DNA from: Oscillospiraceae bacterium | GTDB lineage: Bacteria > Bacillota > Clostridia > Oscillospirales > Acutalibacteraceae | Length of the DNA stretch: 64,000 bases | Assembly (NCBI GenBank): GCA_015066105.1 | Contig: SVOY01000001.1 | Coordinates: forward strand, 458,127-522,126 | Reading direction: 5' to 3' | In this document: piece after piece, positions 37,594-64,000 of the stretch | Layout: the number at the start of each line of letters is the position of its first letter | How positions within the stretch are numbered: position 1 is the stretch's first letter | Program-made: the position numbers and the translations under genes | The notes under the pieces: model-generated | What the model saw: the letters and a program-made list of their open reading frames with translations, nothing else | Told to the model about the DNA's origin: nothing | Database searches by the model: none

Positions 37594-37670
37594 GAGGGTG
37601 TAGCTCAGTTGGTCAGAGTACTTGCTTGACATGCAAGGGGTCGGTGGTTCGAGCCCACTCATCCTCACCA
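37594..37670 (+). tRNA. tRNA-Val (anticodon GAC), CCA encoded
   Basis: Hand-folded. The 7-bp acceptor stem is GAGGGTG/CATCCTC with one G-U. D loop AGCTCAGTTGGTCAGAGT, anticodon loop TTGACAT, T arm GGTTCGAGCC, 3' ACCA. Confidence 0.9.
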
Positions 37671-42464: not shown

Positions 42465-42477
42465 AAAAATAATAATC

Positions 42478-42660
42478 CCGCCGTGCCGTTTGTGATGTGT
42501 ATAACCTGCCTCAGTAGCAGGGTGGTGATAGCGAGACGGGTTCGCGCTCCCTTCGTCCGTTTAGTTGAAGTCCAAACGGGAGGTCTGCAATCCGCCGTCA
42601 AAGCATCTCTCCGTTTTATAACGTGTTGGGTTATAACGATCACAGATGTCGCACACAGCA
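42478..42660 (-). ncRNA. ssrS: candidate 6S-like regulatory RNA
   Basis: Hand fold. The interrupted closing stem pairs GUGC/GCAC, UGUGAU/AUCACA and UAUAACC/GGUUAUA. A large unpaired central bubble (about 28 nt per side) has a small 3'-side hairpin (CCUGC-N7-GCAGG). The apical stem pairs GACGG/CCGUC and CCGUUU/AAACGG. No ORF; a U7 terminator lies downstream. Confidence 0.45.
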
Positions 42661-42672
42661 GGAGTTATTTAA

Positions 42673-57615: not shown

Positions 57616-57876
57616 ATGATTATCAGGTATTCAAAAGACGCGTTGAAATTTTTGGCCAAGCTGGATAAAAAGTCTGTTACAAGAATAAGAGAGGCTATTG
57701 CCGGCTTAACCCTTGTTCCGCCTGTAGGCGATATTAAACTGATGCAAGGCTATAACGATGAGAGAAAGAGACTCAGAGTAGGCTCCTGGCGGATTATTTA
57801 TAAGTACGGTACAGATAATAACATTGAGATACTTTTCATCATTGATATAGGAAACCGCGGAGATATTTATAAATAA
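57616..57876 (+). CDS. RelE/ParE-superfamily type II toxin
   Basis: 86 aa; RLRVGSWRIIY...ILFIIDIGNRGDIY pattern typical of RelE/ParE toxins. Confidence 0.75.
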   Translation: MIIRYSKDALKFLAKLDKKSVTRIREAIAGLTLVPPVGDIKLMQGYNDERKRLRVGSWRIIYKYGTDNNIEILFIIDIGNRGDIYK

Positions 57877-57888
57877 GGAGGAAAGTAT

Positions 57889-58110
57889 ATGTCTGATGTT
57901 GCAATAGATGCTGCAAGGCTTTTGGATATGCTGCCTGAAAGTGATAAACAGTTTGCTTATGAGTTTATAAAAAAACTTGTTCTTGCCTGGGACCCTGATT
58001 TCACAAAGGTTACCTCCGAGGAAGCAAAGCACATTGCTGCAGCAGAGAACAGCGGCTTTGTTGATGAAGCAGATATTGACTGGGATAATCTCAGCTCAAT
58101 AGCTCAGTAA
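57889..58110 (+). CDS. putative cognate antitoxin (acidic, helical, no recognisable DNA-binding fold)
   Basis: 73 aa; SD GGAGGAA; 12 nt downstream of the toxin; strongly acidic. Confidence 0.5.
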   Translation: MSDVAIDAARLLDMLPESDKQFAYEFIKKLVLAWDPDFTKVTSEEAKHIAAAENSGFVDEADIDWDNLSSIAQ

Positions 58111-60968: not shown

Positions 60969-61964
60969 TTATTCGGTCGGCTTTTCTGATGAGAGGGGAT
61001 TATTCGATATTGCATCCTTGACCTGCTGATTTTCAATGTGGGTATAAATCTCCGTTGTTGCAAGATTTTCGTGCCCCAGAACCTCCTTTAGGGTGAGAAC
61101 GTCAACGTCACCGTGGCGGTACATCAGCGTTGCGGCTGTGTGGCGCAGCTTGTGCACCGAATAGTGCTGACCGTCAAGACCGATTTCCTTAAGATAATGC
61201 TGAACCATAAGCTGAACAGCCTGGCGGCCTATGCGTTTATTCAGCCTGCTTATAAACAGAGCCTTACGTGCATCGTCGTTGGCAAGTCCGTCGTGAGGTC
61301 TGACTCTGAGATATGCGTTAAGGGCAATAATACAGGATTTGTTAAGATAGACCATTCTTTCCTTGTTGCCCTTACCGGTTACAATAAGGGTCTGATTTTC
61401 AAAATTGACGTCGGTAATGTTGAGGGAAACCAGCTCAGCAAGACGAAGACCGCAGTTGAGAAAAAGGGTCAGAATACAATAGTCACGCTCCTTATTTTCG
61501 CCCTTGACGGCGCCAAGCAGTGCCTTGCTTTGCTCAAGGGTGAGGTAGCGGGGGAGTGTTTTTTTGGCTGAGGCTACCTCAAGCATTTCAAGCGGATTTT
61601 TGTCTATATAGTGCATTTTTACGGACAGATATTTAAAAAGGCCCCTTAAGGCTGAGGCTTTACGCATACGGCCTCTTGCCTCAATATTCCGCTCATTTTT
61701 GCAATATGTTAAGAAATTGTTAACATTTCTTAAGGTGACGCTGTTGAAGAAATCGCGGCCGAGGTATGACATATCAAAGTCAGCGGGCAAATCCTCGGGT
61801 GAATCAAGGCCGCGCTCAAGCGAAATCATATACCGCAAAAAAAGGCGGATATCTGAAACGTATTCATTTAAGGTTGCCTGGGAGCGGTCCTTGGAAACGG
61901 ACAAATCATCAATATATTCATTAACAAGCTCAGGCAAAAGATTTCTGTTAAGATAAGGAAGCAT
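60969..61964 (-). CDS. tyrosine site-specific recombinase (XerC/XerD family)
   Basis: 331 aa; the full R-K-H-R-H-Y set is readable (GLRLAEL, GKGNKER, HKLRHTAAT, LGHENL, EIYTH); SD AGAGGTG. Confidence 0.9.
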   Translation of the reverse strand: MLPYLNRNLLPELVNEYIDDLSVSKDRSQATLNEYVSDIRLFLRYMISLERGLDSPEDLPADFDMSYLGRDFFNSVTLRNVNNFLTYCKNERNIEARGRMRKASALRGLFKYLSVKMHYIDKNPLEMLEVASAKKTLPRYLTLEQSKALLGAVKGENKERDYCILTLFLNCGLRLAELVSLNITDVNFENQTLIVTGKGNKERMVYLNKSCIIALNAYLRVRPHDGLANDDARKALFISRLNKRIGRQAVQLMVQHYLKEIGLDGQHYSVHKLRHTAATLMYRHGDVDVLTLKEVLGHENLATTEIYTHIENQQVKDAISNNPLSSEKPTE

Positions 61965-62004
61965 TTTTTTAACACCTCTGTGATTAGCTGTATTTCACAT
62001 ATCA

Positions 62005-62033
62005 ACTATACAAAACTTTTTCAAATATGTCAA
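62005..62033 (-). promoter_or_regulatory. recombinase promoter (TTGACA-17-TATAGT) overlapping a recombinase-type half-site
   Basis: The minus-strand -35 is at 62033-62028 and the -10 at 62010-62005. The 11-mer ACTATACAAAA at 62005-62015 covers the -10. Confidence 0.6.
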
Positions 62034-62551
62034 GTAAAGGGACAAAATTCAGTTTTTTTACCAAGCAGGGCAAAAATCCCGTTTAATCAGTTTTTTTCAG
62101 ATGATACAAGTATCGTTTAAAAAATTTCCATCAAATGACATTTTGAGCAAAAAACGATGAAAACGCATTTTTTGAACAGAATTGCTTTGTTTTAAGAAAA
62201 AGACCTGTATTACGTAAGGTTCAGCAGACAGTAAGCTTTGATTAAATCGCTTCATTGAATTATAATGAATAAAACGATACAATATAAAGCTCATACAAAA
62301 ATATAAAACGTATAAGTCATTGTCCGTTTTAAAAAAATTACTTCATAAAGCAAATTGAACCGACATTTCAGATTACGGATGAAGCAGGTCTGAGGCTTAT
62401 TAAGTTTTACAACAGAAAATGCGCAATACATTATATATATTGAAATTAAAGTAATTGCTTTAGAGCGGATGCAGTTGCAAAGATGAGGAGCTTATAGGAA
62501 TTGAAGCTTTTTATTGCATAAAGGCTTATTTCGGCATTTTTACTCCCCTCT

Positions 62552-62579
62552 ACTATACAAAACATTTATTTTGTATAGT
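62552..62579. other. 28-bp dif-like core site: perfect 11-bp inverted arms with a 6-bp spacer (ACTATACAAAA CATTTA TTTTGTATAGT)
   Basis: Read directly; the arm sequence is identical to the half-site in the recombinase promoter. Confidence 0.75.
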
Positions 62580-62594
62580 TGTTTGTTTGTACTG

Positions 62595-62617
62595 CACAAT
62601 CACCCGTTTTCAACAAA
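62595..62617 (+). repeat. direct repeat, copy 1 (CACAATCACCCGTTTTCAACAAA)
   Basis: Matches 63332-63354 apart from the position of a single base in the poly-T and poly-A runs; weaker similarity extends about 25 bp to the left. Confidence 0.85.
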
Positions 62618-62729
62618 TTCGGCAGTCCAAGTATAATTTTACCATTATTGACTACAAATCAGACCAATGTTTTGTTCGTAGCATTGAAAATCAACAAAAG
62701 AAAAACAACGGCGTGTTAATTATATCCTA

Positions 62730-62757
62730 TTGACAATAATTACAAAATAATTATAAT
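62730..62757 (+). promoter_or_regulatory. brnTA promoter (TTGACA-16-TATAAT); the start codon lies at the expected TSS
   Basis: The -10 ends 6 nt before ATG 62764; no SD is present. Confidence 0.6.
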
Positions 62758-62763
62758 ATAATT

Positions 62764-63048
62764 ATGGGAACAATAAATTTTGAATGGGATGAAAACAAAA
62801 ACTCCATTAACAAAAGAAAACATAAAATATCCTTTGAGGAAGCTCAAGGTGTATTTTACGACCCGGATTCACTCTTAATCAATGACCCTGAGCATTCACA
62901 GGAGGAAGAAAGATTTATCATTTTAGGGCTTAGTTTAAAAGCAAATCTGCTTATTGTGTGCCATTACTACAGAGAGTCCGAAAGCGTAATAAGAATTATT
63001 TCGGCAAGAAAAGTAACCAGAACTGAAACTGAACAATATTATGATTGA
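62764..63048 (+). CDS. brnT: BrnT-family (DUF497) type II toxin
   Basis: 94 aa; FEWDE.K...N..KH.ISFEEA..VF.D start and a RIISARK end. Confidence 0.8.
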   Translation: MGTINFEWDENKNSINKRKHKISFEEAQGVFYDPDSLLINDPEHSQEEERFIILGLSLKANLLIVCHYYRESESVIRIISARKVTRTETEQYYD

Positions 63049-63057
63049 GGTGATAAA

Positions 63058-63267
63058 ATGAAAGACGAATACGATTTTTCAAAAGCAATTAAAAATCCTT
63101 ATGCAAAAAAGCTTAAAAAGCAAATTACAATTAACATTGACAACGAAACAATCGATTATTTCAAGTCGCAATCAGAATTTACCGGTGTCCCCTATCAGAC
63201 ATTGATTAATCTTTATCTTGCAGACTGCGCAAAAAATAAAAAACAGCTTCATATGTCATGGAACTGA
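63058..63267 (+). CDS. brnA: BrnA-family antitoxin
   Basis: 69 aa; EYDFSKA..NPYAKKLKKQITI..D pattern; directly downstream of brnT. Confidence 0.75.
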   Translation: MKDEYDFSKAIKNPYAKKLKKQITINIDNETIDYFKSQSEFTGVPYQTLINLYLADCAKNKKQLHMSWN

Positions 63268-63274
63268 ACAGACG

Positions 63275-63300
63275 ACCCGCCCTGAGGGGCGGGTTTAGTT
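63275..63300 (+). terminator. GC-rich stem-loop after brnA
   Basis: 8-bp stem acccgccc / gggcgggt with a 4-nt loop; weak T tract. Confidence 0.55.
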
Positions 63301-63331
63301 ATTAAAACAGTATAATCGCCTGTTTCAACCA

Positions 63332-63354
63332 CACAATCACCCGTTTCAAACAAA
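63332..63354 (+). repeat. direct repeat, copy 2 (CACAATCACCCGTTTCAAACAAA)
   Basis: See 62595-62617. Confidence 0.85.
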
Positions 63355-63425
63355 ACGCCGTTACCTATTGTTATATTTTCATTTTTATGATAAAATGTAT
63401 CAAACAAATTTTAAGGATGAATGAA

Positions 63426-64000
63426 ATGCAGATAAAAATTCAGGACGGTTGCGTTGACCTTTCCGGCGAACCGATTTTAAAAAGAATAAATATCGAAATA
63501 AATACTCAGAGTAAAATCGGCGTTGTAGGCCGTAACGGCTGCGGCAAAACCACGCTTCTGAGATTGCTTGCCGGTGAGCTTCAGCTTTCAAGGGATGACC
63601 CCGAAATGAAAAGCATTTTCACCGTATCGGGAAAGCCTGTTATAGGCACGCTCAGTCAGATTGCCTTTAAGGATAACTCGGTTTCGCTGGTTGATGAAAT
63701 CAGAAGTGCTTACGCTGATATTATCAGGCTTCGTGATGAAATTGAAAGGCTTCGCATAAAAATTGACCGCTCCCCTGCCGATGAGCTTATTGAAGAGTAT
63801 TCGGCAAAGCTTGATTTGTTTACAAATCTCGGCGGATACTATTTTGAAAAGGAATACGAGGCGGCAATCAAACGCTTCGGCTTCAGCGATGCGGATAAAA
63901 TCAAGCCGTTATCGGCATTTTCGGGCGGTCAGCGTACAAAAATCGCCTTTCTTAAGCTGATTTTGTCAAAGCCCGACCTTCTGCTTCTTGATGAGCCGAC
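63426..64000 (+). CDS. ABC-F family ATPase (partial; runs off the window end)
   Basis: Not in the ORF track because no stop falls in the window. Hand translation gives MQIKIQDG..., Walker A GRNGCGKTT, signature FSGGQRTKIAF and Walker B LLLLDEP. An alternative in-frame ATG is at 63417. Confidence 0.85.
   Translation, partial: MQIKIQDGCVDLSGEPILKRINIEINTQSKIGVVGRNGCGKTTLLRLLAGELQLSRDDPEMKSIFTVSGKPVIGTLSQIAFKDNSVSLVDEIRSAYADIIRLRDEIERLRIKIDRSPADELIEEYSAKLDLFTNLGGYYFEKEYEAAIKRFGFSDADKIKPLSAFSGGQRTKIAFLKLILSKPDLLLLDEP

Follow-up and report, generated by a model that had tools for sequence, protein, structure and literature searches.

Is a perfectly symmetric palindrome beside a tyrosine recombinase gene a recombination module in its own right, or is it the site at which the chromosome of its host resolves dimers? 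The question is raised by a stretch of 64,000 nucleotides (hereafter, the window) from an Oscillospiraceae bacterium (assembly GCA_015066105.1, contig SVOY01000001.1). A sequence-only reading had noticed in it an 11-6-11 palindrome of the Xer/dif type and a third copy of its arm in the promoter of the neighbouring recombinase gene, and had proposed a self-contained recombinase and site module rather than only the housekeeping system. Our results point to the housekeeping system: the palindrome at 62552-62579 is quite probably the chromosomal dif of this Acutalibacteraceae (Oscillospirales, Clostridia) bacterium, and the gene at 60969-61964, called xer below, that of its Xer recombinase.

A symmetric site linked to a xer gene

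The argument rests on the following elements (positions are those of the window).

62552-62562: left arm of the probable dif, ACTATACAAAA (direct sequence reading)
62563-62568: spacer of the probable dif, CATTTA (direct sequence reading)
62569-62579: right arm of the probable dif, TTTTGTATAGT (direct sequence reading)
62552-62579, no strand given: dif, probable site of chromosome dimer resolution and attachment site of Xer-exploiting elements (IMEX) (conservation, skew, empty and occupied alleles)
62544-62551, + strand: xer-side flank of dif, TCCCCTCT; family consensus TCCCCTNA (41 oriented sites)
60969-61964, - strand: xer, encoding a Xer-family tyrosine recombinase of 331 aa that is probably the cognate enzyme of dif (Pfam, XerD alignment, synteny)

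The two arms of the palindrome are exact reverse complements of each other and form, around a 6-bp spacer, the 28-bp core of two inverted 11-bp arms that characterizes dif. Like other Xer/dif sites it is non-coding, has variable flanks and is used by integrative elements. The exact 11-mer arm occurs three times in the whole 64 kb, twice in the palindrome and once as a lone arm close to xer, and dif itself occurs once; reverse-complementing 62569-62581 gives exactly the 13-mer CAACTATACAAAA found at 62003-62015. The arm agrees at 7 of 11 positions with what we take to be the XerD arm of Escherichia coli dif, and at 8 of 11 with TTATGTAAACT, presumably the corresponding arm in Bacillus subtilis.

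We scanned public metagenome contigs for the exact 11-N6-11 pattern, a search in which the arm symmetry of the relatives follows by construction, and found the palindrome in 88 contigs, once per contig, some of them 0.3-0.5 Mb long (up to 545 kb). This symmetric pattern is widespread. The geometry described in the sequence-only reading was thus confirmed by direct reading, repeat search and these exact matches, and the possibility that the 11-mer is common AT-rich background can be dismissed, because the palindrome recurs exactly in the 88 contigs and the lone arm is kept in eight species. The proposed linkage of site and recombinase also extends to the relatives: where there is enough sequence, a Xer homologue (41-59% identical to that of the window) adjoins the site and is read away from it, its start codon often lying 4-40 nt from the palindrome. 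In most relatives dif is directly 5' of xer; in the window it is 587 nt upstream, with the lone arm near the gene. The link is not universal, because one Oscillospiraceae locus (L006, Xer 47% identical) has no site within five mismatches in the 6 kb on either side of xer.

Forty-one distinct sites were oriented by their xer gene for a consensus. Among them the arms extend to 12 nt (A-arm ... arm-T), and the spacer consensus T-A-T-T-C/T-A always has the same direction relative to xer. A TCCCCT motif (62544-62549 in the window) occupies positions -8 to -3, 2 nt outside the left arm, and is confined to the xer side. Where xer abuts dif, its reverse complement is the ribosome-binding site of xer. 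It also persists where a comFC-like gene or a spacer separates the two and the motif cannot play this part. The motif may be part of the functional site, and may be what gives asymmetry to an otherwise symmetric dif.

The comFC-like gene between dif and xer is found in L069, L021, L056 and L059, and also in L046 and L097 (Xer 41-59% identical), and encodes a phosphoribosyltransferase of 214-224 aa. Lineages of this type carry a different palindrome, GTGAAACTGTTTCAC, just 5' of the xer ribosome-binding site, which may be a separate xer operator.

The site lies at the replication terminus

The sequence-only reading had itself named the test of its proposal: if GC skew placed the replication terminus at the palindrome, the site would simply be dif. 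We applied this test, in a form independent of contig orientation, to the 23 distinct loci in which each flank of the palindrome measures 2.5 kb or more. All 23 have a higher top-strand GC skew in the left flank than in the right one (means +0.065 and -0.054, Wilcoxon p = 2e-7); the left flank has a positive value in 21 of them and the right flank a negative value in 19. The long open reading frames (ORFs) converge on the palindrome. The xer gene, which is read away from the site, would counteract this pattern.

The genome of the window is consistent with the family. A look-up of BrnA, which is encoded on the right-hand side of the site, and an RsgA match with 100% identity allowed its sequence to be extended to 81.9 kb. 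Left of the site, 51 of the 56 long ORFs are on the + strand. Gene orientation is mixed between 63.4 and 69.8 kb, and from 69.8 to 81.9 kb all called genes are on the - strand (rsgA, the gene of a 702-aa protein, PP2C, rlmN, rsmB, fmt, def, priA, rpoZ), except one 110-aa ORF that is called in some assemblies only. GC skew passes from +0.030 on the left to -0.013 on the right, and AT skew from +0.048 to -0.041. The cumulative G-C curve rises to ~62-63 kb, is flat to ~74 kb and falls thereafter, and the site is the left edge of this region of skew shift. The claim that the system is something more than, or other than, the housekeeping dif is not supported by these results.

The recombinase and its mode of action

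The product of xer matches Pfam Phage_integrase (1e-39) and has an N-terminal SAM-like domain. Aligned to E. coli XerD (1a0p), it keeps the motifs GLRxxEL, GKGNKER, HxLRH, LGH and IYTH, in which the catalytic residues R, K, H, R, H and Y are located, as expected of a cognate catalytic Xer and as the sequence-only reading had stated. When its scores were compared with the cut-offs of the NCBIfam equivalog models, it fell short of XerC (211.1 against 335.15), XerD (190.7 against 329.6), the archaeal XerA and integron integrase model NF040815 (182.5 against 220) and XerS (169.9 against 267, with only residues 156-321, the C-terminal half, aligning). Scores were lower still with the integron-integrase models TIGR02249 (85.8 against 265) and PRK15417 (62.4 against 435) and with invertase models (51 and 42 against cut-offs of ~222). 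A search of solved structures gave XerD as the best match (1.7e-29), followed by XerA; XerH (5jjv) was much weaker (E = 2.6e-14). Among the matches to family models there was none for XerH.

The genomic context of the gene is stable. Left of xer lie asd, queA, a ParE-like pair, tgt, yajC, DUF3792 and spoIIM. Orthologues of xer that are 67-92% identical share this synteny, and the order queA-tgt-yajC-DUF3792-spoIIM-xer holds for all the relatives that we examined, the lowest Xer identity among them being 67%. Because of this conservation, xer must be regarded as a core chromosomal gene and not as part of a mobile element. Identical copies of the window locus are present in many gut-type metagenome assemblies, and related genomes are labelled Acutalibacteraceae.

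We infer a single-recombinase system because one gene is linked to the site and the two arms in the window are identical; as suggested by the sequence-only reading, identical arms are compatible with binding by a single protein, and the recombinase probably acts alone on them. Xer protomers are predicted to bind both 11-12 bp arms, two dif sites of a chromosome dimer would then synapse at the closing septum, and the dimer would be resolved by strand exchange across the 6-bp spacer. With identical arms, the whole reaction would probably be carried out by one recombinase, and its directionality could come from the asymmetric spacer (consensus TATTYA) and the one-sided TCCCCT flank.

A second tyrosine recombinase gene, whose product is ~24% identical to the Xer of the window, lies 2-3 kb from xer in L018, L026, L032, L047, L051, L057 and L083, which form one lineage in which xer abuts dif. 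This observation bears on the number of recombinases involved.

Mobile elements integrate at the site

Pairs of closely related loci with and without an insertion allowed the target of integrating elements to be located. Compared with the empty locus L094, L086 has 4.83 kb more between xer and dif, including genes for Zot (7.9e-13) and Rep_OBD; compared with the empty loci L036 and L096, L095 has an additional 5.96 kb with Rep_trans (6.9e-32) and an HTH repressor; and L098 differs from the empty L096 by 4.36 kb with a REP_ORF2-G2P protein. Within pairs the flanks share 96-99.8% identity, except the right flank of L098 (88%), and the breakpoints fall in the site. The flank alignments overlap by ~26 nt, corresponding to the flank, the left arm and the spacer, so the inserts have arm, spacer and non-arm as their border adjoining xer and a complete dif as the opposite border. 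Such borders are the signature of IMEX, as described for CTXphi-type phages (PMC5357621).

These cases are not isolated. Of the 88 loci, 16 carry Rep or Zot genes at a distance of 240-1750 nt from the palindrome, and among five close relatives of the window whose contigs continue past dif, four (L005, L102, L103, L104) have inovirus-like sets of genes to its right (Rep, a P-loop protein and small membrane proteins). Elements that resemble filamentous phages integrate at dif. Gene content to the right of the site, which the sequence-only reading had proposed to compare between strains, does vary between species: the site is empty in L101, is followed by inovirus-like prophages in L005, L102, L103 and L104, and in the window by a cassette encoding the toxin BrnT and the antitoxin BrnA (BrnTA).

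A looser 18-mer query gave 77 matches in IMG/VR, none with the CCCT flank or with Rep or Zot; we set them aside as chance matches.

A lone arm in the predicted xer promoter

Between xer and dif the window contains three further features.

62003-62015, + strand: lone dif arm (CA)ACTATACAAAA over the -10, with no partner arm 6 nt away (exact copy; the 11-mer is at 62005-62015)
62005-62033, - strand: predicted xer promoter, with -35 TTGACA at 62028-62033, a 17-nt spacer and -10 TATAGT at 62005-62010 (consensus scan, 11/12)
62016-62543, no strand given: AT-rich spacer from the lone arm to the TCCCCT flank, of variable length between species, probably an old domesticated insertion

The TTGACA-17-TATAGT sequence ranks second among the promoter matches of a 2.6-kb stretch, and its -10 falls within the lone arm; the exact copy and the promoter scan thus agree with the sequence-only reading, which had placed a third arm over the -10 of xer. 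We compared eight species of the clade of the window (the window itself, WIN, with L004, L005 and L100-L104; Xer identity 67-100%). In all eight, (T)CAACTATACAAAA stands 26-43 nt upstream of the xer start, with GTCAAG (-35) behind it in unchanged form. Between the arm and GTCAAG lie 12-13 T-rich nt that vary, and the whole 13-mer is invariant, including the TTTTG and the CA/TG flank beyond the -10 hexamer. This invariance amid a varying spacer fits selection extending past the hexamer, and fits a Xer that still binds there.

The full dif lies ~370-580 nt further upstream in six of these species, the contigs of L004 and L100 ending before it. The same order, an arm near xer followed by foreign DNA and then a full dif, is seen with the recent inserts of L086, L095 and L098 and with a 77-nt remnant in L039; in these four loci it is an arm, a spacer and a non-arm that stand next to xer. 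The lone arm of the window is thus probably a relic of an older, gene-adjacent dif, kept as a -10. It would be the xer-proximal arm of that site, from which an ancient insertion shifted the working dif ~550 bp away; the inserted DNA would have provided the TTGACA -35, and the arm would have been retained as TATAGT, the -10 of the xer promoter. Xer bound to the lone arm could repress its own gene, so that autoregulation, as suggested by the sequence-only reading, is plausible.

Two other observations concern the same region. In L104, the sequence ACTATACAAAA-N30-TTTTGTATAGT is found 43-94 nt upstream of xer, with the -35 between the arms, and a full dif with one mismatch (ACTATAGAAAA) follows ~580 nt further on; this arrangement of arm, 30 nt and inverted arm resembles a transitional stage in the splitting of an older dif that adjoined the gene. 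The contigs of L004 and L100 end 176 and 277 nt upstream of xer, inside the spacer between xer and dif, which is compatible with assembly trouble from a repeated or variable element at dif.

From the start of the lone arm to the start of the left arm of dif, the distance ranges from 371 to 577 nt between species, and the spacer is mostly unalignable except for a hairpin block. This imperfect hairpin of ~58 nt (62080-62137; CCGTTTAATCAG ... GATGAT-acaagt-ATCGTT ... CCATCAAATGAC) is conserved in the eight species, and of the 23 pairs that RNAalifold finds in it, five show compensatory changes. The hairpin may act as a regulatory element, or it may descend from a filamentous phage, as what is left of its folded attachment site or origin; Rfam had no family match for the spacer, hairpin included, or for the BrnTA cassette. 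A strain, L011 (GCA_054297585.1), has a deletion of ~27 nt in the spacer (equivalent to ~62322-62348 of the window) and scattered substitutions, with dif and the lone arm intact.

Alternative explanations

Several points weigh against our interpretation of the palindrome as dif and of the arm as a promoter element. In the genome of the window the skew curve reaches its maximum in a plateau (63-74 kb), with no sharp peak at the site, and gene orientation is mixed in the first 6 kb to its right. GC skew and gene orientation are confounded in Firmicutes, and the 5 of 56 left-hand genes on the - strand are too few for a regression. NCBI calls the orthologues XerC and the best solved structure is XerD, so a partner recombinase is possible. 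The count of one site is a count per contig, and Xer gene content was likewise read from contigs. In IMG/VR we found neither the full palindrome, nor the flank with arm and spacer, nor relatives of the L005 Rep protein, and no free phage genome or circular form with a matching attachment site came to light. Finally, there is no recognisable -35 within the site where xer abuts dif, and for this reason the role of the arm as a promoter is clear only in the clade of the window.

The database names raise the question of whether xer is the XerD (RipX-like) half of a XerC/XerD pair, with a canonical dif elsewhere and the palindrome serving as a XerD operator or as a landing pad for elements. Its orthologues are named XerC, its best PDB match is E. 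coli XerD, the arm is XerD-like (7 of 11 positions for E. coli and 8 of 11 for B. subtilis, with dif sequences that we assume), and xer adjoins spoIIM, as we take ripX to do in B. subtilis. We nevertheless think this unlikely: skew and gene orientation switch at the palindrome in all 23 loci and in the genome of the window, the XerC and XerD cut-offs are missed by more than 120 bits, and elements integrate at the palindrome as they do at true dif sites. Furthermore, the identical arms of the window, where a pair would have two different ones, leave no separate site for a second protein, and the 62 kb to the left contain no B. subtilis-type dif, given the sequence that we presume for it. Still less should be expected of transcription factor binding, in which the palindrome and the lone arm would be operators of an unrelated regulator of xer and its neighbours, and not recombination sites. 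AT-rich palindromes overlapping promoters are typical of operators, and the arm does cover the -10, but elements insert exactly within the palindrome and duplicate arm and spacer, and an operator would hardly account for the 11-6-11 geometry, the linkage to xer and the position at the terminus. We consider this explanation extremely improbable.

The inverted 13-mers at 62003-62015 and 62569-62581 could also be the ends of an invertible promoter switch, a 553-bp segment with the -35 whose orientation would decide whether the xer or the BrnTA side is read. The repeats are perfect over 13 nt, 553 nt apart and next to a tyrosine recombinase gene, and inversion would rebuild a right-facing TTGACA-17-TATAGT. 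Yet a palindromic dif provides an inverted copy automatically; the lone arm also points the same way as the left arm of dif, as at insertion junctions, and without a partner arm it is not a full core. Three distinct assemblies (L001-L003), compared base by base, are identical to the window from xer through the start of the ABC-F gene to the right of the cassette (20 further places with the same Xer protein were collapsed as sharing neighbouring genes), a single orientation is found in the eight species, and in most lineages xer abuts dif, leaving nothing to invert. A switch is therefore very unlikely, and we give equally little credence to a self-contained integrase and attachment module, whether of a mobile element or of an integron-like platform with BrnTA as a captured cassette. 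The layout does recall such a module: the recombinase diverges from its site, variable cassettes lie beyond it, the toxin-antitoxin cassette is bounded by repeats, and BrnT/BrnA occurs in a dif module of an Acinetobacter plasmid (PMC7530245). It is contradicted by the core synteny of xer in all relatives (67-100% identity), by the integron-integrase score of 86 bits against a cut-off of 265, by the lack of a repeated-site or attC-like array in the window, and by the position of the site at the terminus, while capture of cassettes at dif is compatible with the explanation that we favor, a chromosomal dif with its own Xer.

Comparison with known Xer/dif systems

The function of this chromosomal dif is most likely ordinary, the resolution of chromosome dimers, in a form of which we found no description in the literature. 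The papers that we consulted, up to 2022, name no bacterial single-recombinase systems besides XerS, XerH and XerL (PMC9765430, PMC5357621), and a genome-wide prediction of dif sites in 2011 used a Firmicutes profile seeded from B. subtilis (PMC3025954). A literature search with the 11-mer arm matched only Gateway and GFP primer sequences, none of them as dif.

XerS/difSL of streptococci and lactococci resembles the clade of the window in having one xer linked to dif at the terminus of a Firmicute host. difSL lies directly upstream of xerS, as dif does in most relatives of the window locus, and for XerS it was suggested in 2007 that dif may be part of the xer promoter and let xer regulate itself (PMC1914069). 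The two differ in that difSL is an atypical 31 bp, against 28 bp with identical arms here, and the XerS model scores 170 against a cut-off of 267, in the C-terminal half only. Moreover, the XerS arrangement was suggested as a possible guard against insertions between xer and dif (PMC1914069), whereas here elements do insert between them. XerL/dif of Legionellales shares with our site a single recombinase and long uninterrupted inverted arms, and was found through an integrated element that mimics dif (PMC9765430). Yet xerL of Legionella pneumophila is more than 400 kb from dif (PMC9765430), not adjacent to it, the phyla are different, and the likeness is one of site architecture. XerH/difH of Helicobacter and Campylobacter also has a single recombinase with dif near xer (PMC9765430), but difH and other single-recombinase dif sites have a dyad symmetry that is only partial (PMC9765430), unlike the palindrome described here, and the sequence match to XerH is weak.

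The two-recombinase systems, E. coli XerC/XerD-dif and B. subtilis CodV/RipX-dif, have the same 28 bp in an 11-6-11 arrangement, the same position at the terminus and the same exploitation by filamentous phages, as well as a XerD-like arm, the catalytic residues and the fold family. They differ by two different arms and two genes far from dif, where we find identical arms and one linked gene. As for the elements, IMEX of the CTXphi, VGJphi and TLC types are likewise rolling-circle Rep or Zot elements at dif, which leave a complete dif at one of their junctions and, at the opposite one, a hybrid in which a single arm is good, and Acinetobacter dif modules also place a toxin-antitoxin pair by dif (BrnT/BrnA, PMC7530245). 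The differences are that our hosts are Gram-positive anaerobes, and that the BrnTA cassette has one full and one decayed site, not two working pdif.

Jointly, these traits might add to XerS, XerH and XerL a fourth bacterial Xer/dif system with a single recombinase, in a wide range of gut, rumen and termite-gut Clostridia. In such a system a dif arm would double as the -10 of xer, so that Xer sets its own level. The arm would always stay with xer when an element integrates, because the crossover falls in the spacer, and a gene-linked dif could for this reason tolerate inovirus-type insertions between gene and site. The clade of the window would be a fixed example, with its lone arm, its acquired -35 and its dif ~550 bp away. 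As a whole this proposal is tentative, and we hold it to be less likely than not.

Insertions do occur at a gene-linked dif, and the xer-proximal arm survives them. If the reading of the palindrome as dif and of xer as its recombinase is confirmed, a large and mostly uncultured group of gut Clostridia resolves its dimers with a gene-linked, probably single-recombinase system and a perfectly symmetric dif; the 28-bp site provides a marker of the terminus for metagenome-assembled genomes of Acutalibacteraceae and of other relatives that carry it; and the site at which filamentous-phage-like elements attach in Gram-positive anaerobes is identified. The same loci would then be natural test cases for the two ideas put forward for XerS in 2007, autoregulation and protection against insertions (PMC1914069).

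The BrnT/BrnA cassette and other features of the window

The right-hand flank of dif is organized as follows.

62573-62617, + strand: copy 1 of direct repeat D1, the last 7 nt of the right arm and 38 nt of flank including ACAATCACCCGTTTTCAACAAA (repeat search)
62618-63309, + strand: inserted cassette with brnT and brnA (Pfam; absent in L101)
62764-63048, + strand: brnT (Pfam BrnT_toxin, 5.5e-28)
63058-63267, + strand: brnA (Pfam BrnA_antitoxin, 1.5e-7)
Within the cassette: predicted promoter TTGACA-16-TATAAT (promoter scan) and terminator at 63274-63295
63289-63316, no strand given: degenerate dif-like junction GCGGGTTTAGT-TATTAA-AACAGTATAAT, at the far cassette end just before D1 copy 2
63310-63354, + strand: copy 2 of direct repeat D1, followed by the ABC-F promoter region (ABC-F start at 63417 or 63426)

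The two copies of D1 are imperfect repeats of 45 nt, 78% identical, and copy 1 begins inside the right arm of dif. The region of copy 1 resembles the dif flank of the empty site in L101 (86.6% over 62544-62610) and the prophage end in L005. In L101, whose Xer is 87% identical, the ABC-F gene follows dif after ~120 nt; the window has 737 bp more, and the cassette is absent in L101. Beyond it, 63365-63480 aligns with the L101 sequence upstream of and into ABC-F (73.7%). A matching flank is also found at the dif-proximal prophage end in L005, where it overlaps the 3' end of a small terminal ORF, and in diverged form in L103. The junction at 63289-63316 matches the left arm at 2 of 11 positions and the right arm at 6 of 11, is in register with the right arm of dif through D1, and has a TATTAA spacer that also occurs in real dif sites of relatives; we infer from this that it is an old recombination junction.

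The cassette would thus be a later insertion of 737 bp next to dif, probably captured by the same recombination. It may have arrived through recombination at dif together with the dif-proximal flank from another genome, or alternatively by another route followed by a duplication. The precedent for BrnT/BrnA in such a position is the Acinetobacter plasmid dif module (PMC7530245); among the other loci compared, none had BrnT/BrnA next to dif, and the exact BrnA protein was found in the same context only.

A second pair resembling a toxin-antitoxin system, an 86-aa ParE-like protein and a 73-aa partner, is encoded at ~57616-58110 in the queA-tgt interval, ~4.5 kb left of dif. It is absent in L100-L104, where queA abuts tgt. 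Elsewhere in the window, and neither of them related to dif, are a 6S RNA at 42471-42667 on the - strand, whose 51 bits exceed the gathering score, and a tRNA gene at 37594-37667 on the + strand.

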